Shown here in pieces: positions 2-8,208 of a stretch of DNA of 8,208 nucleotides; position 1 is the stretch's first letter, and each line of letters opens with the position of its first letter. The position numbers and the translations under genes were made by a program. This DNA is from Candidatus Woesearchaeota archaeon (GTDB lineage Archaea; Nanobdellota; Nanobdellia; CAYMVK01; CAYYFB01). Under the pieces are notes generated by a model. The model worked only from the letters and a program-made list of their open reading frames with translations, had not been told where the DNA came from and searched no databases. The stretch spans positions 1 to 8,208 of the forward strand of contig CAZUOK010000007.1 in assembly GCA_964622145.1 (NCBI GenBank). Reading direction: 5' to 3'.

Positions 2-1336
2 AGGAGGAAAGATTCGGAAAGATTATTTTATTTTATTGATCCTCCAGAATTTCATCTTTCTTTAAAAGAGATAAAAGAAATACTGCTTGCTGTTTTGAAG
101 GGGGAAGTATCGAAGGATGTTGAGGATGTATACAAGAGGTACATGGAGGGATTGGGGATTATAGAACTTTTGGTTAGGGATGGGAATGTTGAGGATGTGT
201 TTGTTTCGTCGGTGGATGGAAGGGTGTACGTAAATCACAAGAGGTATGGTCTCATGGATACGAACTTGAAACTAAATAGTAGAGATATATCTAGGATAAA
301 TATAAGGGTAAGGGAGATATCTGGAAGGCCTTTTGATGAGGGAGTACCTGTAATACACCTTTCGCTTGGTAAAGCTAGGATAACTGGGATAAGGGAGCCG
401 TTTACATTCAAGGGTGTTGGTTATGCTGTTAGGATACACGAGAAGGTCTCCTGGACGCTTCCAAAACTAATAAAAAACAGAATGCTCGACGAAAAGGTTG
501 GAGCGCTTCTAAGTGTTCTTGTGGATTCCTTTTCAACAATCCTGATAACTGGTCCTAGAGGTGCTGGGAAGACCTCCCTTCTATCCGCCCTCCTGTTTGA
601 GATACCGAAGACGGAGAGGATAATTGTAATTGAGGATACTGCAGAGCTTCCTGTTGAGGAAATGGTGAGGGCAGGCTATGTGGTTGAGCATATAAGGATA
701 TCTGCTTGGGACAGTGAGTACGAAATGTCTCCAGAAGAAGCCCTTAGAGCTAGTTTAAGACTTGGAGAAAGCTTCCTGATAATAGGGGAGGTTAGGGGGA
801 AGGAGGCGATAACACTGTTTGAGGCTATGAGGATAGGGGCTGCTGGAAACACTGTTATGGGGACCATCCACGGGAGTTCTGCTGAGGATGTCTTTGACAG
901 GATTGTAAACGAAATTGGAATACCAAAGACATCCTTCAAAGCTACGGACTTTATAATATCTGTAAACAATCTCAGGCTTGGAGAAAGTACCAAGAGGATT
1001 AGGAGGCTTATTGAAGTAAAAGAGGTTGGAAAGGATTGGAGGGAAGATCCTAGGATTGAGGGAGGATTCTTGGATATCGTTATCTACGACAGGTTTAGGG
1101 ATAAGTGGATTGTTAAGAACTTGGAAAAATCTTCAGGAATAAGGAAAATACTTTTCGTCAGGGGGTGGAAGTTTGATGAATTTAAAGAAGTTCTAAAGGC
1201 TAGGGAGGAGCTCCTTAGGAAATGTATAAGAAAGGGGATTTTGGATCCCTTGGATTACTCAAAAGCAAAATCTCTTTATTACAAGCTTGTTGAGGAAGGC
1301 TTTTCACCAAAGGAGGCAGTTTCGAAGGTGGTTTGA
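2..1336 (+). CDS. Type IV filament / secretion ATPase of the GspE-PilB-FlaI(ArlI)-VirB11 superfamily, 5'-partial
   Basis: The frame of track ORF 95..1336 stays open back to nt 2 (RRKDSERLFYFIDPPEFHLSLKEIKEILLAV precedes LKGEV). The TTG at 95 is therefore an ORF-caller artefact and the window edge truncates the gene. All four signature boxes are present: Walker A GPRGAGKTS, Asp box IIVIEDTAEL, Walker B FLIIGEVRGKEA, His box GTIHGSSAEDVFDRI. Confidence 0.9.
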   Translation, partial: RRKDSERLFYFIDPPEFHLSLKEIKEILLAVLKGEVSKDVEDVYKRYMEGLGIIELLVRDGNVEDVFVSSVDGRVYVNHKRYGLMDTNLKLNSRDISRINIRVREISGRPFDEGVPVIHLSLGKARITGIREPFTFKGVGYAVRIHEKVSWTLPKLIKNRMLDEKVGALLSVLVDSFSTILITGPRGAGKTSLLSALLFEIPKTERIIVIEDTAELPVEEMVRAGYVVEHIRISAWDSEYEMSPEEALRASLRLGESFLIIGEVRGKEAITLFEAMRIGAAGNTVMGTIHGSSAEDVFDRIVNEIGIPKTSFKATDFIISVNNLRLGESTKRIRRLIEVKEVGKDWREDPRIEGGFLDIVIYDRFRDKWIVKNLEKSSGIRKILFVRGWKFDEFKEVLKAREELLRKCIRKGILDPLDYSKAKSLYYKLVEEGFSPKEAVSKVV

Positions 1337-1485
1337 TGAAGATTGAAAGGATTGCTTTGGAAGAGATTATTAGGATGATAAGAGAAATTGAAAAGGAACT
1401 TCACAGACTAAACCTAGAGATAAGGAGCATAAGGGAGGAATTGGATCTAATAAAGGCAAAACTTTTAAATAAAAGGAGGCAATGA
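1336..1485 (+). CDS. Small 49-aa coiled-coil protein (MKIERIALEEIIRMIREIEKELHRLNLEIRSIREELDLIKAKLLNKRRQ), function unknown
   Basis: Translated by hand; it is too short for the ORF track. Its ATG overlaps the ATPase stop as ATGA (1334-1338), with GGTGG 5 nt upstream. Its last codons contain AAAGGAGG (1472-1479), a candidate SD for the ATG at 1492. Hydrophobic residues follow a heptad pattern. Confidence 0.5.
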   Translation: MKIERIALEEIIRMIREIEKELHRLNLEIRSIREELDLIKAKLLNKRRQ

Positions 1486-1491
1486 AAGGTT

Positions 1492-3435
1492 ATGATCTTC
1501 CCTTTCTTGCCCCTTCCTGGAGTGGGTGGGGGAACCATCGCTAGCAAAGTCATTGCAAAACCTGCAGCTGCAATTGCTAGGAGGATTGGGAGGGCCTTGA
1601 TAGTTAATTCCTCCAATTGGTTTAGGAAGAAATTTGGAGGTCTGAAAGCTTTCTTGAACAAAAACAAAGATTTGGTTTCTTTTGGTCTACAAACTATTGG
1701 AATGCTACTTATGCTTACAAAGATCCCTCCCTTAATGGCAATAGGGTCCGGAATGGTAATAGCTGGAGGACTTATGACAGGTGACTGGAAAACAACACTT
1801 GTAATGCTTGGGATAGGCCTTGTTGGGTTTGGGCACGTTGCAGGATCTTTAAACCTTTCATGGCTGGCTTCGGCTCTTAGTCATCTCGGAAGGGCATCCA
1901 TGTTCCTAAGTTCTGCCGGATTCTTTTTGGATGGGTTCAAGAGGCTTAGAAGAGGGGATATAAGTACTGGATTGGAGAGTATGGCAATGGGACTTCTAGG
2001 ACTCTCTGAGGGGCCTTTTGGGGTGATGACAAGGGGATTGTTAAGGATGATGGCAAGTGGGATGTTCGTGTCCTCCGGAGCTCTCGAAATTAAGAAAGGG
2101 AATGTGGTTTATGGAGCTTTATCAGTAGGGTTTGGTTTGGTGATAGGGAGGGTTGGGAGGATAGAGTACAAGTACGGAAGGGTTGGAGGTGAGGTTGATG
2201 CCTTCCTCAGAGAAAGAGTATACAAAGGAGTGGCTGGAGAAGAGGCTGGAAGAGTTGAAGTCAGAGCTAAGAGGAGAATTCTTAGAAAGATTGCGAGACT
2301 TGGAGGAAAGATTTTCAAGAGAATTGGAAGAAGTTTCAAAGGAATTGGACGCTTTGGAAGAAGAATTCTTTCAAGAGCTGGAAAGATTGGAGACATTATT
2401 GTTAAGGGAATTGGAAAAGTGGGAAAAGCGATTAAGAGATTCTTTATCAAAGGAATTCAAAAAGTGGGAGGAATCTTTGTCAGAGGAATTGGAGAAATTA
2501 GACAAAGTGGTGAAAGAGCTGTTAGACTTTCTGTGAGGGGGGAGAGGTATTTCATAGAAAGATTGGCTAGGAGATACAGATCCTTTGTTGCAAGGACAAC
2601 GGATGGGATACTGAAGTGGTTCTTTGGTAAGGGAAAAAGGGTTGTTGTGGACACAAATTCGATAAGGGGAGGGTTTAAGTTCGTTGATGCAGTTGTCCTG
2701 GAAAAGGGGAAAGGAGGGGTGTACGTTGATGTATACGATGTCAAAACAAGGGCTTTGCCACTGGAAGATATAGGGGAAAAGGCCCTTAATAGATATCTTA
2801 ACAGGGATATTCCAAAGCTTGGATCTGTTGGGGCGAGAAATCTTGAGGGGGCTTTCTCAAAGGTAGATAGGAGATTGTGGAGGGTATTTAGGAATGCCAG
2901 GATAAGGAAAAGGACTCTTGTAATAATAGATGGAGCTAACAAGGTTGTTACACCAAGGTCTTTAGAAAAGAAAGCAAGAATTCTGTCAAAAATCCTAAGG
3001 AGGTCTAGGAGATATGGTGTTAGGATTAAGAGCATAACGAATTACTTGGGACCTGCTGTTGGGAAACCTTTTGTAAGGAAATCAAGGAAGGTGGAAAGGT
3101 CTATTAGAAAAGTATTTGGGAGGATTAGGTCAAGACTAAGGAGGATAAGATCGGGTGTTATCAGAAGATTGTTTAAAAGACCCTCAAGACTGAGATGGTA
3201 TAGAAGTTCTGTTAAAAGAACTTTGAGGAGATCCTTAAGAAGGACTAGAAATAGGATTAGAGGAAGAACATTCTTAAGAAGAGTGAGACCCAAGATATCT
3301 AGAAGGTATGCATCTTTTAGGAGGTCGATTTCTAGGTGGTATAGGAGGAGAAGGTCCTGGATATCCAGGAAGTACAGATCTTTTAGGAGGTCTATCTCGA
3401 GGTGGTTTAGGAGTTTTTTTGGAAGGCGTAGGTAA
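1492..3435 (+). CDS. 647-aa multi-domain membrane protein of unknown function: N-terminal glycine-zipper TM region, cationic G-I-G repeat region, globular middle, arginine-rich tail
   Basis: An uninterrupted 1.9-kb ORF in AT-rich DNA, preceded by an SD motif. Residues ~60-235 carry several Gly-rich hydrophobic segments (GSGMVIAGGLMTG, GIGLVGFGHVAG, AMGLLGLSEGPFG, GALSVGFGLVIGRVG). Residues ~262-340 hold KRIGRSF/KGIGRFG/KGIGKVG/RGIGEIR repeats. By hand count the last 120 residues contain 46 Arg, 7 Lys and 1 Glu. I recognise no family. Confidence 0.8.
   Translation: MIFPFLPLPGVGGGTIASKVIAKPAAAIARRIGRALIVNSSNWFRKKFGGLKAFLNKNKDLVSFGLQTIGMLLMLTKIPPLMAIGSGMVIAGGLMTGDWKTTLVMLGIGLVGFGHVAGSLNLSWLASALSHLGRASMFLSSAGFFLDGFKRLRRGDISTGLESMAMGLLGLSEGPFGVMTRGLLRMMASGMFVSSGALEIKKGNVVYGALSVGFGLVIGRVGRIEYKYGRVGGEVDAFLRERVYKGVAGEEAGRVEVRAKRRILRKIARLGGKIFKRIGRSFKGIGRFGRRILSRAGKIGDIIVKGIGKVGKAIKRFFIKGIQKVGGIFVRGIGEIRQSGERAVRLSVRGERYFIERLARRYRSFVARTTDGILKWFFGKGKRVVVDTNSIRGGFKFVDAVVLEKGKGGVYVDVYDVKTRALPLEDIGEKALNRYLNRDIPKLGSVGARNLEGAFSKVDRRLWRVFRNARIRKRTLVIIDGANKVVTPRSLEKKARILSKILRRSRRYGVRIKSITNYLGPAVGKPFVRKSRKVERSIRKVFGRIRSRLRRIRSGVIRRLFKRPSRLRWYRSSVKRTLRRSLRRTRNRIRGRTFLRRVRPKISRRYASFRRSISRWYRRRRSWISRKYRSFRRSISRWFRSFFGRRR
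2275..2511 (+). repeat. Imperfect purine-rich repeat of roughly 21 nt (heptad-like) inside the 647-aa CDS
   Basis: The core GAATTGGA recurs exactly at 2321, 2342, 2408 and 2486, with variants at 2384 and 2452. It encodes [KR]-G-I-G-[KR] units. The tract is open in two sense frames and on the antisense strand. Confidence 0.6.
3301..3411 (+). repeat. Two copies of a 45-nt unit spaced 66 nt apart, inside the Arg-rich tail
   Basis: 3301-3345 and 3367-3411 align at 36/45 nt by hand. They encode RRYASFRRSISRWYR and RKYRSFRRSISRWFR. Five of the differing codons are synonymous (aga/agg, tat/tac, tcg/tct, att/atc, tct/tcg). Confidence 0.75.
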
Positions 3436-3859
3436 TTTCTCTTTTCAAGAAATCCAATACCTTTCTAACAATCCTCATTTCAACACCTATCTTTCTCATA
3501 ATTCTTTCGATGTCTTTATCTCTTAGCCCAGCCTTTTTCATAGAAAGGATTGTCCTAACAACGTTTCTCAAGTAAATCTCCCTTATCCTCCCTCTCTTTT
3601 CTCCGTACTTGAAGGTCGCTGTGAAGGTCAGTATCCTACTAATAACATCTGAGGAAAAACCGACCGTAAAGGAGTACAGGCAAAGAATTTGTTTTGATGT
3701 TCCGAGGAGGTAGTAGGTGTTTGAAAATAGGTAGGCTGATAGAGATATCAGAATGATAAAGGAAAAGAATTCTCTTAAAACATCATTCCTTGAAGGCCTT
3801 GTGAGGATTTCCCCTAGCAGCACTCCAAGTATAAAAGATATTGCCTCCTCCACAAACAC
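3407..3859 (-). CDS. Small membrane protein (about 3 TM segments) with a basic helical C-terminal domain, function unknown
   Basis: It is the only ORF covering 3436-3860. Hydrophobic segments are ISFILGVLLGEIL, FFSFIILISLSAYLF and ILCLYSFTVGF, followed by GRIREIYLRNVVRTILSMKKAGLRDKDIERIMRKIGVEMRIVRKVLDFLKRE. The track start at 3997 would run through the TATA box and the start of the divergent gene at 3906. GTG starts at 3859 or 3853 fit a leaderless start 22-28 nt from the TATA centre. The 3' end overlaps the 647-aa gene convergently by 29 nt. Confidence 0.55.
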   Translation of the reverse strand: MFVEEAISFILGVLLGEILTRPSRNDVLREFFSFIILISLSAYLFSNTYYLLGTSKQILCLYSFTVGFSSDVISRILTFTATFKYGEKRGRIREIYLRNVVRTILSMKKAGLRDKDIERIMRKIGVEMRIVRKVLDFLKREITYAFQKNS

Positions 3860-3874
3860 CTCTTCCTCGGAAAT

Positions 3875-3886
3875 CCTTATAAAAAG
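3875..3886. promoter_or_regulatory. Shared A/T-rich TATA element between two divergent, apparently leaderless genes
   Basis: CCTTATAAAAAG reads TTATAAAAA on the plus strand and TTTTTATAA on the minus strand. Its centre (~3881) lies 25 nt from the ATG at 3906 and 22-28 nt from the GTGs at 3859/3853. This matches the archaeal spacing of about -26 between TATA box and transcription start. Confidence 0.55.
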
Positions 3887-3905
3887 ATCACCGAAGTAAC
3901 AGGTT

Positions 3906-4403
3906 ATGAGGGGTGTTGAGGCGGCACCTTTGGCGTATGTTCTAGCGGCAATATCTGTTGTAATAGCCCTCTCAATACTCGTCATGATGGGGACCACTAT
4001 AAAGGGAGGGGTGAAAGAGGCTACGGAGACGATAAACGAATCGATAGTTGAGGGTGTTAGGAGGGCATCTCAAGAGTTATCAGAGACTTTTGGAGAGGAG
4101 GATCAGATTGTTATAGATTCTGTTAACAAAACAAATAAGACAATTTACTTCAGTGTTTTCAACTGGAGAAATGCTGAGAAGTTTGATGTAGTAATAAAGG
4201 ATAAGTCTGGAACAGAGGAAAAGAAAGATCTCCAAATTGTTGACTACTGCGAGTCAAAAGATCTGGATGGAGATGGAAAGGTTGATGATCTTAACTGTAA
4301 ATATAAATCGGATCTTGAAAAGATGACATCAGGGATATTGGAGATATATCTGAAGAGTTCTGATGGGAAGGTGCTTTCACAGCAGAAATACATTTACAAG
4401 TGA
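3906..4403 (+). CDS. Pilin-like protein P1, a candidate class III signal peptide protein and possible major subunit
   Basis: The N-terminus MRG-VEAAPLAYVLAAISVVIALSILV is a short basic leader ending in R-G followed by a hydrophobic helix of about 22 residues. The rest is hydrophilic, with sequons NES, NKT and NKT. Cys115 and Cys131 bracket DLDGDGKVDD. It is the first gene after a well-spaced TATA box. Confidence 0.7.
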   Translation: MRGVEAAPLAYVLAAISVVIALSILVMMGTTIKGGVKEATETINESIVEGVRRASQELSETFGEEDQIVIDSVNKTNKTIYFSVFNWRNAEKFDVVIKDKSGTEEKKDLQIVDYCESKDLDGDGKVDDLNCKYKSDLEKMTSGILEIYLKSSDGKVLSQQKYIYK

Positions 4404-4407
4404 TCAG

Positions 4408-4860
4408 ATGGTAGAGGAAGAGATATTTAGACCAATTTTAATTTCCCTTTTGATTACAATGACTGCACTTTTAGGTTCAAATGTAATATACAACTTTATT
4501 CTTTCTCAAAAGATTGGAAGATTCTACAAGCAGGTAAATGATATGATAAGGACGATGATTTATATGAGAAATTATCTTGAGAAACCTTCCTTCATGAGAT
4601 TTTACATAGAAATCCCCTCCTACTGCCATTTATCAATAGATAATAGTTCAAACACAATTTCTTATGGATGTTCTGGAAAGAGGTACAAGATTCCAATGAA
4701 ACAATACAAAATAGAAATACTTTTGATAAAAGGAGGAAAAAATTGCAATATAAACAATGGAAGATTCCTACATGGAGAATACAATATTGTACTGGCTTAT
4801 GTTGAAAAAATTCCAGGGGAAAAACAGGAATGCGTGGTGTATTTTGATGATATCTCTTGA
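4408..4860 (+). CDS. Pilin-like protein P2
   Basis: Starting at the ATG 4 nt after the P1 stop places a hydrophobic helix at the N-terminus (MVEEEIFRPILISLLITMTALLGSNVIYNFIL). The protein has 4 Cys and an NSS sequon. Its C-terminal motif VEKIPGEKQEC resembles SEKIPGKIMRC in P4. The track start at 4363 would overlap P1 by 41 nt and bury the helix. Confidence 0.6.
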   Translation: MVEEEIFRPILISLLITMTALLGSNVIYNFILSQKIGRFYKQVNDMIRTMIYMRNYLEKPSFMRFYIEIPSYCHLSIDNSSNTISYGCSGKRYKIPMKQYKIEILLIKGGKNCNINNGRFLHGEYNIVLAYVEKIPGEKQECVVYFDDIS

Positions 4861-5176
4861 GTTTATCATTGAGATTTTTGAATTCTTCCTGTTCGTCTAT
4901 CTACTTATCTTTTTCCAAAAAACTATTTATTTCTTCAGAGAAATGAAGAAGAGTGTTGAGGGAGAAATGATATGCAGCTTGATAAATTTATTGTATGCAA
5001 AGGGGGGAGAAATAAAGCTACATCTTGTGGAGAAAACAGAAATAAAAGGAAATATACTGAATTATTCTGGATTTATATGCTATTCAAAGGGATTTTGCAA
5101 CGAATTTTTTGGATCAGGTTATATAAAGTTTAGATTGAACGGATCTTGCATAGAGGTGGTGGCTTACAATGATTGA
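4847..5176 (+). CDS. Pilin-like protein P3
   Basis: The in-frame ATG at 4847 gives MISLEFIIEIFEFFLFVYLLIFF. Its xxSxEF start resembles the QxSxEF core of archaeal class III signal peptide proteins. It overlaps P2 by 14 nt and has 4 Cys. The upstream part of the track ORF (4757 onward) lies inside P2. Confidence 0.55.
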   Translation: MISLEFIIEIFEFFLFVYLLIFFQKTIYFFREMKKSVEGEMICSLINLLYAKGGEIKLHLVEKTEIKGNILNYSGFICYSKGFCNEFFGSGYIKFRLNGSCIEVVAYND

Positions 5177-5528
5177 CAGGGTTTTGGAATCCCTAATAAT
5201 CTTATTCTTGTTTTTTATCACAATACTCTCAATTCATGCAAAGATTATGGAAGACTTTAAATATTTTAGAAAACTGTCAAAACTTTTCAGATCGTTATCA
5301 GAAATAGAGCTAATTTGCAAAGAATCAACAGGAAACCCACTTTATTTTAACTTATCAGACATAAAAGAATATGATTTAATTGTTGAGACATTTGAAAATG
5401 GAAGCGTAAGAGTTTACTGTGGAAGTGGTGGTTGTGAGATCTCAGACAGGATCTGTTTTGGGTTGCCAGCTGTTATTTTAAAAGGATCTGAAAAGATACC
5501 TGGGAAAATTATGAGGTGTCTTAAATGA
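5169..5528 (+). CDS. Pilin-like protein P4
   Basis: The N-terminus is MIDRVLESLIILFLFFITILSI. It overlaps the P3 stop by 8 nt, and GAGGTGG lies about 10 nt upstream. It has 5 Cys and sequons NLS and NGS. Confidence 0.6.
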   Translation: MIDRVLESLIILFLFFITILSIHAKIMEDFKYFRKLSKLFRSLSEIELICKESTGNPLYFNLSDIKEYDLIVETFENGSVRVYCGSGGCEISDRICFGLPAVILKGSEKIPGKIMRCLK

Positions 5529-5995
5529 GGTCGATTCCAATAATAATATTTTGGATTCTAGCCCTATCTTTTTTCATATTCTATCCTACAGGAAGATCTC
5601 ATGAAAATCTCCTAAAAACTCTTTACTACAAGGAATATTACAAGAGATTTCTTGACGTCTTGATTGAAACAAGAGAAAATGAACTTAAAGAGCTGGGGAA
5701 TCTTATAAGAGAGAGCGGCTGTTACAATAAAACAGTTGTTGAAAAGATAAGAGAAATTGGGAGTGTATACAAGATGTACAGGAAGGGAAATTATGAAATA
5801 TTATTTGGAATTTCTGTAAGATCAAAGAGCACAAATTGTTACATCTATTACAACAGCACCTGCCTTTGTTTCTATGAAGAATTCAAGGATCCTCTTGGTA
5901 GAGGAGAAGTGATTCTTGTTGAGGAAGCTGGAAAGGTATCCAGGAAGGTAAACATTTCTTTTATCGAGGAGGTCTCAATTGGGTACTTCAGATAA
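5525..5995 (+). CDS. Pilin-like or membrane-anchored extracellular protein P5
   Basis: The N-terminus is MRSIPIIIFWILALSFFIFYP. It overlaps the P4 stop as ATGA, and GAGGTG lies 8 nt upstream. It has 4 Cys and sequons NKT, NST and NIS. Confidence 0.6.
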   Translation: MRSIPIIIFWILALSFFIFYPTGRSHENLLKTLYYKEYYKRFLDVLIETRENELKELGNLIRESGCYNKTVVEKIREIGSVYKMYRKGNYEILFGISVRSKSTNCYIYYNSTCLCFYEEFKDPLGRGEVILVEEAGKVSRKVNISFIEEVSIGYFR

Positions 5996-6008
5996 CTTTA
6001 TTTATACT
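5996..6008 (+). promoter_or_regulatory. TATA element for a leaderless transcript starting at about 6027
   Basis: TTTATTTATA (5997-6006) is centred about 25-26 nt upstream of the ATG at 6027, directly after the P5 stop. Confidence 0.5.
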
Positions 6009-6026
6009 TCTTGAGAATCTGTTTTT

Positions 6027-6152
6027 ATGTCCGTGCTTGGAGTGATAATATTGATATTGATCATAACGTTCTTCACGATATATATCGGGATGAGATATCA
6101 GCTGGAACAGAAGATATTGGAGATTGTTGGAGAGGGATTGAAGATATGCTAG
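6027..6152 (+). CDS. 41-aa single-TM protein ([41 protein letters not shown])
   Basis: Translated by hand; it is absent from the track. The ATG sits at the predicted leaderless start, and the N-terminal hydrophobic helix is clean. The competing track frame (6011, TTG start) reads as non-protein-like sequence over this stretch. Confidence 0.4.
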   Translation: MSVLGVIILILIITFFTIYIGMRYQLEQKILEIVGEGLKIC

Positions 6153-6457
6153 ATTTTTTGTTGTTTTTTTCCGGAATACTCATGGCAGAGATGTTATCCC
6201 CAGGGTTTGAATTTTATGAGGAACTGCTCCACGTATTCCTAATCGTTCTTATCGCTGTTACCGTTTTTGGAAAAGATTACAAGATACTTGGAAGTCCTTA
6301 CCTCTACAACTTTTTCTCAGGATTTTCATCAACCATTTCATCAATGTTCCTCGTACAATCTTTCAAATGCTTAAAGCAAATATTAAAGAGAAGGAGGAGG
6401 ATGGAGATTGCTAGGAAAATTAGATTGCTAAGGGATATAAGGGAAAGGCTAAGATAG
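6146..6457 (+). CDS. 103-aa membrane protein with a basic C-terminal helix, function unknown
   Basis: This is the internal ATG of track ORF 6011..6457. It overlaps the 41-aa ORF stop as ATGCTAG. Hydrophobic segments are [16 protein letters not shown] and [15 protein letters not shown], and the tail is [23 protein letters not shown]. The 3' end overlaps uL24 convergently by 9 nt. Confidence 0.45.
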
Positions 6458-6877: not shown

Positions 6878-7279
6878 CTACACCACCACCTTTGCAATCT
6901 TTCCAAGTGGAAGGAACCTTTGTACAGCCTCCCTAGCAACAGGACCTTTTATAATAGAGCCTACAGGCTCTCCTTCCTCATTTTTGACAAGAACGCATGC
7001 GTTGTCCTCAAATTTTATTCTTGTCCCATCAGCCCTTCTATATTCTTTTCTTGTCCTTATTATAACTGCCATAACAACCTTGTGCTTCATTTCTGGTTTT
7101 CCTTCTATCACAGAACCCCAGACCAAATCCGCAATCCCAGCAGCTGGTAATCTTCTCCTAACTCCATGGTATCCTTTTACAGCAATTATTTTTATCTTCT
7201 TTGCCCCTGAATTGTCCGCAACATCAACAACAGCTCCAACAGGCAAGCATCTAACAACACTTGCCTTTATTGGTCTCAT
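6878..7279 (-). CDS. rpl14: Ribosomal protein uL14 (archaeal L14)
   Basis: Motifs are ADNSGAKKIKIIAVKGYHGVRRRLPAAGIADLV, RKEYRRADGTRIKFEDNACVLV and IKGPVAREA. The preferred start is MRPIKA at 7279, which overlaps the uS17 stop as ATGA and follows AGGTGGTG. The track start at 7333 lies inside uS17. Confidence 0.93.
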   Translation of the reverse strand: MRPIKASVVRCLPVGAVVDVADNSGAKKIKIIAVKGYHGVRRRLPAAGIADLVWGSVIEGKPEMKHKVVMAVIIRTRKEYRRADGTRIKFEDNACVLVKNEEGEPVGSIIKGPVAREAVQRFLPLGKIAKVVV

Positions 7280-7605
7280 TTCTTCACCACCTGCAAAACA
7301 ACAAAGTGCTTTGCCTTTGACAGTGGTCTGCATTCCCCAATTATTACCTCATCACCTTCCTTTGCATTTATACAAGGGGGGTTGTGAGCAAAGACCTTCG
7401 TCTTCCTCCTCTCATATCTTTCGTACTTTTTCAAATAGTAAAGCCTTTCCCACTCAACAACAACTGTTTTATCCATCTTGGCTTTTTTCACAATTCCTCT
7501 GAATATCCTGCCTCTAACGGACAGTTTTCCATGCCAAGGACAGTAAGGATCATCACACTCCCTTTCGGGAGGTTCTATTCCCTCTATTCCTATATCTCTA
7601 ACCAT
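7276..7605 (-). CDS. rps17: Ribosomal protein uS17 (archaeal S17)
   Basis: Motifs are ECDDPYCPWHGKLSVRGRIF, KMDKTVVVEWE, KYERYERRKTKVFAHNPPCINAKEGD and ECRPLSKAKHFVV. Confidence 0.93.
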   Translation of the reverse strand: MVRDIGIEGIEPPERECDDPYCPWHGKLSVRGRIFRGIVKKAKMDKTVVVEWERLYYLKKYERYERRKTKVFAHNPPCINAKEGDEVIIGECRPLSKAKHFVVLQVVKK

Positions 7606-7983: not shown

Positions 7984-7990
7984 TTTGGAG

Positions 7991-8062
7991 TGGGCCCGGC
8001 GGGATTTGAACCCGCGACCATCCGGTTAAGAGCCGGACGCTTTAGGCGGAGGGTGGTGGCCT
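7991..8062 (-). tRNA. 3' fragment of a split (or very long-intron) tRNA-Lys(CUU), preceded by a GC-rich leader
   Basis: The minus strand reads AGGCCACCACCCTCCGCC-TAAAGCG-TCCGG-CTCTTAA-CCGGA-TGGTC-GCGGG-TTCAAAT-CCCGC-CGGGCCC-A. The anticodon arm is perfect, with CTT at 8030-8028. The T arm with TTCAAAT loop, the 3' acceptor strand and discriminator A (7991) are all present. No 5' acceptor strand GGGCCCG and no D-arm 5' half occur upstream through 8208. The tRNA-like sequence stops at about nt 21-23 (~8043) and gives way to the leader at 8044-8062. Confidence 0.75.
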
Positions 8063-8208
8063 GGACTTTATTGGTTTTACAAGATTTAAAAACTTTTCTA
8101 AGGACCTTTGATCCGTTATTCTGATAACATAACAGCCCCTATCAAATCCTATCTTTGTTGTCTTTATTTTGAAGTGTTCCATAACTCTTTTAAAAAAGAG
8201 TACAGGGT
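8042..8208 (-). CDS. Possible 3' end of a gene running off the right edge (...PVLFFKRVMEHFKIKTTKIGFDRGCYVIRITDQRSLEKFLNLVKPIKSRPPPSA), unresolved
   Basis: By hand translation the minus-strand frame is open from the window edge to TAA at 8044-8042. It overlaps the tRNA promoter and leader, and the final KSRPPPSA is simply the leader translated. No motif is recognised. Confidence 0.2.
   Translation of the reverse strand, partial: PVLFFKRVMEHFKIKTTKIGFDRGCYVIRITDQRSLEKFLNLVKPIKSRPPPSA
8083..8099 (-). promoter_or_regulatory. BRE/TATA promoter dedicated to the tRNA 3' fragment
   Basis: The minus strand reads AGAAAAG-TTTTTAAAT (8099-8084). The TATA centre (~8088) lies 26 nt upstream of 8062, exactly where the GC-rich leader begins. 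Confidence 0.55.

Follow-up and report, generated by a model that had tools for sequence, protein, structure and literature searches.

A putative Tad-like type IV pilus locus of a DPANN archaeon and the basic protein encoded beside its ATPase

An 8.2 kb stretch of archaeal DNA (contig CAZUOK010000007.1 of assembly GCA_964622145.1; all 8,208 nucleotides (nt) are termed the window here) probably represents most of a highly divergent type IV pilus locus of the Tad-like kind, carried by a thermophilic archaeon of the DPANN/Nanoarchaeota type. The window encodes a secretion ATPase, a 49-amino-acid (aa) coiled-coil protein, a 647-aa basic protein termed p647, two small membrane proteins and five pilin-like proteins (pil1 to pil5). 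A first-pass annotation, made from the sequence alone, had placed p647 in the slot usually held by a polytopic PilC/FlaJ/TadC-family platform protein and had suggested a variant filament machine in which p647 is the membrane partner of the ATPase. Every gene it described was recovered at the same positions, and its account of the locus as type IV filament-like is borne out. The proposed substitution did not hold up. In the reading favored here, the platform gene probably lies outside the window and p647 is not its replacement; a recognizable platform is missing because standard profiles are insensitive to this family and because the locus has been rearranged, not because a new membrane partner has arisen. 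A filament machine that lacks a PilC-type platform would be remarkable, but the idea fails on comparison with related loci. Literature searches found no paper that describes this type of locus.

The ATPase and the slot downstream

The ATPase gene (positions 2–1336, + strand) encodes a secretion ATPase of the PilB/FlaI/TadA type, as seen from its matches to PF00437 and NCBIfam models and from its motifs. The 5′ end is cut by the window edge, and about 52 N-terminal residues are missing relative to P0004, the orthologue in the related locus L002. The translated sequence matches PF00437 (T2SSE) in Pfam with an E-value of 4.3e-25, which identifies the hexameric ATPase of type IV filament systems. 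The best NCBIfam models are TadA-family (4.6e-41) and FlaI (6.8e-38), and the Walker A motif (GPRGAGKT), Asp box, Walker B motif and His box are all present. Identity is 76% to P0004 and 67% to P0005, the orthologue in locus L013. The next matches are at about 50% identity and below, with labels that include Nanoarchaeota, Aenigmatarchaeota and Micrarchaeota. A query of genomes, viral contigs and metagenomes with the single ATPase gave no match, and scans with an ATPase alignment retrieved only L013 and its near-identical copy, L017. L013 is a 257-kb contig of a metagenome-assembled genome labeled Woesearchaeota; where it and L003 overlap the two sequences are the same, and its identity to L017 is 99.98%.

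The coiled-coil gene (1336–1485, + strand) begins with an ATG whose first letter is also the last of the ATPase stop codon (TGATG, a 1-nt overlap), and it is predicted to be translationally coupled to the ATPase gene. It is conserved in L002 and L013. The product has no family match; an alignment to FlaC_arch (E 0.03) is not significant. The gene for p647 (1492–3435, + strand) starts 6 nt past the coiled-coil stop codon, with an AGGAGG motif of the Shine-Dalgarno type about 12 nt upstream. The linkage of the three genes noted in the first-pass annotation is thus confirmed. Its description of p647 is equally accurate. Residues 61–235 form a short membrane part with 19% Gly and weakly hydrophobic segments, and residues 236–647, about 400 in number, contain 129 Lys and Arg against 25 Asp and Glu.

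No platform protein is recognizable in the window, in agreement with the first-pass annotation. The ten open reading frames have no match to PF00482, PF04021 or the A24 peptidase family in Pfam at E ≤ 1, nor does a profile of the TadC-like family discussed below (alignment A6) match anywhere in the window. A search for the T2SSF domain in p647 itself likewise gave no Pfam match, at E ≤ 10 for the N-terminal 236 residues or at E ≤ 1 for the whole protein. The layout of p647 is also different from that of the domain. T2SSF proteins are expected to display two repeats, each a cytoplasmic helical bundle with transmembrane helices, whereas p647 consists of one Gly-rich membrane block and a long basic region.

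Gene order in the related loci bears directly on the slot. In L002, the ATPase and coiled-coil genes are followed by a minus-strand gene for a small membrane protein, then by pil1 to pil5 and, again on the minus strand, by a gene for an 888-aa protein. In L013, the ATPase gene is followed by a Trm1-like gene, and divergent from the ATPase is a minus-strand operon with the order TadC-like gene, pil1, pil2, pil3, pil4, pil5, coiled coil. The coiled-coil gene is therefore kept in all three lineages, after the ATPase in the window and in L002, and after pil5 in L013. A tblastn search of L013 with p647 and with the 888-aa protein (E ≤ 0.01) gave no match within 10 kb of the ATPase. Judged by gene order, the slot after the ATPase is not conserved: a small membrane protein follows the coiled coil in L002, and L013 has no p647-like gene near the locus. 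The first-pass annotation had itself named loss of the gene order in related genomes as grounds for abandoning its proposal, and this is what the neighborhoods display. Despite the rearrangements, the three lineages have in common the ATPase, the coiled coil, a small protein with three predicted transmembrane (TM) segments, and pil1 to pil5.

The related loci also carry what the window lacks. A polytopic protein of 512 aa in L002 and one of 553 aa in L003/L013 are 35% identical (E 4e-105). Members of this family contain two helical domains on the cytoplasmic side, and hydrophobic segments, about seven to nine in all, come after each of them. In the Aenigmatarchaeota locus L008, the slot next to the ATPase is filled by a 617-aa protein whose gene overlaps the ATPase stop codon and which is also unrecognized by Pfam, NCBIfam and PDB sequences. 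An hhalign comparison of a four-sequence alignment of the 512-aa family (A2) with the L008 slot protein gives an end-to-end match with a probability of 93% and E 2.6e-7 over 509 columns. With the L008 protein added (A3), the family aligns, again end to end, to the slot protein of a Haloterrigena plasmid with a probability of 97.5% and E 5e-12 over 480 columns. This plasmid protein, a 'secretion system protein' encoded adjoining an ATPase, displays a weak PF00482 match at residues 397–504 (E 0.69). The combined family profile has a local match to the motif with which bacterial TadB/TadC open (E 2.3e-4, probability 45%), in the same region as the weak PF00482 match, and the N- and C-terminal halves of the family align weakly to each other at this motif (E 4.6e-4). 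In L013 and L008, the platform-like gene is adjacent to the ATPase or to the pilin genes. It is concluded that the 512–553-aa family represents the putative platform, of TadC/FlaJ type, that serves this ATPase clade; it has diverged beyond the reach of standard models, and its link to PF00482 is weak. Platform proteins of this DPANN/haloarchaeal clade thus escape both PF00482 and NCBIfam, so that a 'no PilC' call made automatically in such a genome cannot be relied on.

A candidate platform for the window's own lineage is P0128, a 533-aa TadC-like orthologue encoded on a separate contig of 2,163 nt. P0128 is 47% identical to the L002 protein and 35% identical to that of L013, and the latter two are 35% identical to each other. 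This pattern mirrors that of the ATPases, where the window is 76% identical to L002 and 67% to L013, with 65% between L002 and L013. P0128 is likely to be the copy that belongs to the window's lineage. The most likely explanation for the gene's absence from the window is that a rearrangement in the window's genome moved it elsewhere.

Several observations weigh against this reading of the locus. The platform-like family is not significant against PF00482, NCBIfam or PDB sequences, and hhalign comparisons with GspF and HofC of Escherichia coli are not significant either. An AlphaFold model of the platform-like protein is poor (mean predicted local distance difference test score, pLDDT, 58.9), and its Foldseek matches are noise. 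In L004 and L006, which represent more distant Nanoarchaeota, the ATPase stands without a platform-like gene within 10 kb. P0128 is assigned to the window's lineage only by its identity levels. In addition, pil2 to pil5 have no [KR]G prepilin cleavage motif and no match to a pilin family.

That p647 is a new membrane partner in place of PilC/TadC/FlaJ would fit its tight coupling to the ATPase and coiled-coil genes, its membrane region and the absence of a PF00482 match throughout the window. The orthologous ATPases of L004 and L006, which also stand without an adjacent platform-like gene, would fit as well. Yet the position of p647 changes in L002 and the protein has no counterpart near the L013 locus, and both of these relatives retain a TadC-like gene, which in L013 is part of the pilin operon. 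The membrane segments of p647 are weakly hydrophobic, homologues other than one weak counterpart are lacking among 1.84 billion representative sequences, and a likely TadC-like orthologue for the lineage exists in P0128. Replacement of the platform by p647 is thus considered highly improbable.

The basic protein p647

The length of the p647 reading frame is far beyond chance: in 300 approximately dinucleotide-preserving shuffles, the longest open reading frames averaged 81 codons with a maximum of 190, compared with 647 codons here. The translated sequence displays a Gly-rich membrane block, basic repeats of the KGIGK type, a central domain and an Arg-rich tail. Overall, the protein has an isoelectric point of 12.0 and a net charge of +121 and contains no Cys. 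There is no match to p647 in Pfam, NCBIfam, PADLOC or PDB sequences. An exhaustive phmmer search with residues 1–530 against the 1.84 billion representatives found only p647 itself and P0124, a junk translation of a repeat, and a word-index search returned p647 alone.

The sole counterpart is the 888-aa protein of L002. The similarity is weak but collinear (BLASTP E 8e-4, 24% identity over 384 residues), and the two proteins have a common layout: an N-terminal MxFPxLP motif, a Gly/Ala-rich membrane block, KGIGK-type repeats, a central domain and an Arg/Tyr-rich tail. The 888-aa gene lies past the pilin genes on the minus strand, i.e., at the opposite end of the locus. In both genomes that have a p647-type gene, however, the gene is on the same strand as a core pilus gene and downstream of it, the ATPase gene in the window and the TadC-like gene in L002. 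For this reason an accessory or scaffold role is favored; it is the most likely function, with roughly an even chance of being the right one. In this reading, p647 evolves fast and is specific to its lineage; it is a basic protein, anchored in the membrane but probably cytoplasmic for the most part, and an extra component rather than the platform.

A different view is that p647 has nothing to do with the pilus and is a passenger in a variable region, either what is left of a virus or mobile element or some other nucleic-acid-binding protein. The gene varies in presence and position among three close lineages, the protein is an orphan, and its extreme Arg-rich tail resembles nucleic-acid-binding arms. 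Whole-protein scans also gave matches to the tape measure family phrog_167, with E 1.7e-4 for p647 and E 6.7e-5 for the L002 888-aa protein, over very long and gappy spans. The match is lost when the halves are scanned separately and is probably driven by composition. A gene with a weak HEPN-domain match that adjoins the 888-aa gene in L002 can be cited in favor of a passenger too. Against it are the lack of a PADLOC match, the lack of an ATPase match in viral contigs, the absence of an integrase or other mobile-element gene nearby, and the shared strand and downstream position relative to core pilus genes in both genomes. A passenger origin is unlikely on balance, though it deserves more weight than the other alternatives to an accessory role.

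It is also conceivable that the locus forms a short pseudopilus that takes up or transfers macromolecules such as DNA, with the basic p647 handling nucleic acid at the cytoplasmic face. An ATPase gene with five pilin-like genes after it resembles the layouts of ComG and type II secretion loci, and p647, hyper-basic and free of Cys, is probably cytoplasmic. The central domains of p647 and of the L002 888-aa protein display, by eye, a D...(D/E)VK pattern reminiscent of PD-(D/E)xK nucleases. The nuclease assignment was rejected: the pattern was seen by eye only, no Pfam or PDB-sequence match accompanies it, and a single-sequence AlphaFold model of the domain has an unusable pLDDT of 34.7. Genes of the ComEC/ComEA or Ced type are absent from the window in the Pfam scan, and p647 is missing from the L013 locus. 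A pseudopilus of this kind is rather improbable, less so than a replaced platform.

Other observations concern p647-type proteins and their genes. Alternative reading frames of 117–118 aa, rich in Glu, Lys and Leu and resembling coiled coils, are found inside the p647 gene (2183–2536, + strand) and inside the L002 888-aa gene (7180–7536, − strand). The two are only weakly similar to each other (E 0.002), and they probably arise as a side effect of the purine-rich repeats coding for KGIGK. The L002 gene with the weak HEPN-domain match (8451–8852, − strand) lies between the TadC-like and 888-aa genes and has no counterpart in the window. In L008, a 902-aa protein is encoded at 12830–15538 on the minus strand, convergent on Aenigmatarchaeota pilin genes. 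It displays a Gly-rich membrane block, a FGKGIGQLGKQGIKFGIK stretch and a basic tail, and has in addition an extracellular Cys-rich N-terminal part. The 902-aa protein was considered as a relative of p647 and rejected; the layout is alike, but BLASTP values against p647 and the 888-aa protein are E ≥ 1.

Pilin-like and small membrane proteins

Five tightly packed genes at 3906–5995 encode products that each have an N-terminal hydrophobic helix and two to five Cys residues. The first, pil1 (3906–4403, + strand), is a candidate major pilin with a TATA-like sequence, TTATAAAAAG, about 25 nt upstream. It is 51% identical to its L002 orthologue. The N-terminus has a three-residue leader, MRG|VEAAPLAYVLAAISVVIAL..., with VEAAPL following the predicted cleavage point and then a hydrophobic helix of about 25 residues. 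The motif M[KR]G[IV]E..P[LI] recurs in L002, in L013 and in three small genes that follow the TadC-like gene of L008, and two of these three display weak, sub-threshold matches to the N-terminal part of Arch_flagellin. The conservation of the motif together with the Arch_flagellin matches makes pil1 a credible type IV pilin with a three-residue leader. The L013 orthologue (6189–6377, − strand) comprises 62 aa and is essentially the N-terminal helix alone; the window and L002 proteins carry about 100 more residues with two Cys.

The remaining four are minor-pilin-like. The pil2 gene (4408–4860, + strand) encodes a leaderless product with the N-terminus MVEEEIFRPILISLL..., and has orthologues in L002 (41%) and L013 (29%). 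Its open reading frame reaches back to 4363, but the extension is not conserved; the orthologues in L002 and L013 begin with MIEEEV and MEEEV, at the first start codon after a stop. The products of pil3 (4847–5176, + strand; four Cys) and pil4 (5169–5528, + strand; five Cys) are also leaderless, and pil5 (5525–5995, + strand) encodes a protein with four Cys. Orthologues of all three occur in L002 and L013, with 36% identity for pil5 in L002. In L002 and L013, pil2 to pil4 use the first possible start codon and the hydrophobic helix follows almost at once. The five genes and the divergent small membrane protein gene described in the first-pass annotation are indeed present, but a prepilin-type motif is found in pil1 only. 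By these sequence features, pil2 to pil5 appear pilin-like in layout only. None of the window proteins matches PF04021 or Arch_flagellin in Pfam.

An A24 prepilin peptidase (PibD/FlaK/EppA) is absent from the window according to Pfam, as had been stated before, and none is listed in the flanks of L002, L003, L004, L006 and L008. Two nanoarchaea without a prepilin peptidase have been reported (Makarova et al., 2016, PMC4858521). It is tempting to consider that this pilus, with leaderless minor pilins and a major pilin that has only Met-Arg-Gly to lose, may need no prepilin peptidase, and that new accessories may have been recruited to it, i.e., the three-TM protein and p647/888, the latter as a tether for nucleic acid or another polyanion at the cytoplasmic face. 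This extended proposal is speculative and quite unlikely to hold in full. A leaderless pilin-like set without a visible peptidase and an orphan protein with an isoelectric point of 12 in a pilus operon may nevertheless bear on how tiny symbionts attach to their hosts.

The small three-TM protein is a conserved accessory of the ATPase clade and ends in a helical domain of about 45 residues. In the window, one gene is at 3407–3859 on the minus strand. Its longest open reading frame is 3407–3997, where the extension past about 3859 is antisense to pil1, and the product is 40% identical to a 144-aa protein of L002. A second copy, a paralogue, is at 6146–6457 on the plus strand; the open reading frame begins at 6011 and the conserved part at about 6146. 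This copy matches the family profile at E 5.5e-35, and displays 35% identity to a 127-aa protein of L002, whose gene sits before the TadC-like gene, and to a 155-aa protein of L003/L013. The profile matches, in addition, a gene in L008 and, in both L004 and L006, the gene that immediately precedes the orthologous ATPase, and the C-terminal helical domain has the motif L..L++.G.s.eEI. A three-TM protein is present in every DPANN locus examined, and it is the most constant neighbor of the ATPase clade, more so than the platform gene. The family members are at 9621–10004 in L004, 9511–9954 in L006 and 5701–6291 in L008. In L004 and L006 the gene comes after one for a tRNA deacylase and extends over the ATPase start. 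In L013, an RNase J-like gene with beta-lactamase, beta-CASP and RMMBL domains (8019–9317, − strand) is located within the pilus operon, between the small membrane protein gene and the TadC-like gene, and overlaps both.

A working model can be drawn from these components. The hexameric PilB/FlaI-type ATPase would dock on the polytopic TadC/FlaJ-like platform, and the two together would pull the major pilin pil1 out of the membrane and polymerize it. The four leaderless minor-pilin-like proteins, pil2 to pil5, might form the priming complex for pil1, with the 49-aa coiled coil and the small three-TM proteins as putative conserved accessories. The filament would probably serve in attachment to a host or a surface.

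Likeness to known systems and other features of the window

The closest known systems are the archaeal type IV pili of clade 4, above all those of subclade 4F (PMC4858521). Features in common are a FlaI/TadA-like ATPase, a TadC-like two-repeat platform (in the relatives of the window), several pilin genes and a small intracellular coiled-coil protein comparable to the one that the halobacterial 4F system is reported to have. Among archaeal plasmids, the best matches are pairs of an ATPase and a 'secretion system protein' in Haloterrigena, at 39% identity. The locus is a putative member of subclade 4F. It differs in that the window has no platform gene and carries the extra 647-aa basic protein and small three-TM proteins. 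It also differs in that pilin genes stand beside the ATPase: for the subclade 4F ATPase of nanoarchaea, no cognate pilins could be identified (Makarova et al., 2016, PMC4858521), and the genes described here provide candidates for pilins that this 2016 census of archaeal pili did not find.

The bacterial Tad/Flp pilus (CpaF/TadA, TadB, TadC, Flp, TadE/TadF) is similar in that TadA-family is the best model for the ATPase, the platform-like family aligns to the TadB/TadC opening motif, and the 62-aa pil1 of L013 is close to Flp in size. The differences are that the platform here is one two-repeat protein and not two proteins, that no secretin, TadZ or TadV peptidase is found, and that the minor-pilin-like proteins are leaderless. 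The competence pseudopilus of Firmicutes (ComGA–ComGG) also combines an ATPase gene with five small pilin-like genes downstream in the same orientation. There, however, the ComGB platform sits between the ATPase and the pilins, and the Com pilins have leaders cut by ComC; in addition, the window ATPase matches ComGA far more weakly than TadA or FlaI (NCBIfam).

The archaellum offers analogies as well. FlaF and FlaG resemble pilins in having an N-terminal hydrophobic helix and are not known to be substrates of the prepilin peptidase, which would be a precedent for leaderless pil2 to pil5. FlaX is a membrane-anchored cytoplasmic scaffold and is a possible analogy for p647. No sequence similarity was detected, however, and the window has no FlaH or archaellin match in Pfam.

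The minus strand of the right-hand third of the window encodes the ribosomal proteins L24, L14 and S17 and the RNase P subunit p29. The pilin-like genes (4001–6000) are distinctly richer in A + T than the rest: the G + C content is 0.31–0.36 there, against 0.38–0.46 in the ATPase and p647 genes and 0.38–0.41 in the ribosomal protein genes.

At the end of the window, the minus strand of 7988–8206 contains the 3′ part of a tRNA without its 5′ part: a CUU (Lys) anticodon stem-loop, the variable loop, the T arm and the 3′ strand of the acceptor stem. ARAGORN reports no tRNA in this 3′ part and Rfam finds the T arm only. A GC-rich 17-mer, GGCCACCACCCTCCGCC, lies directly before the tRNA part. Also before it is an open reading frame that runs off the window and displays a weak LAGLIDADG_3 match (E 0.08). 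The segment looks like an intron-containing or split tRNA gene.

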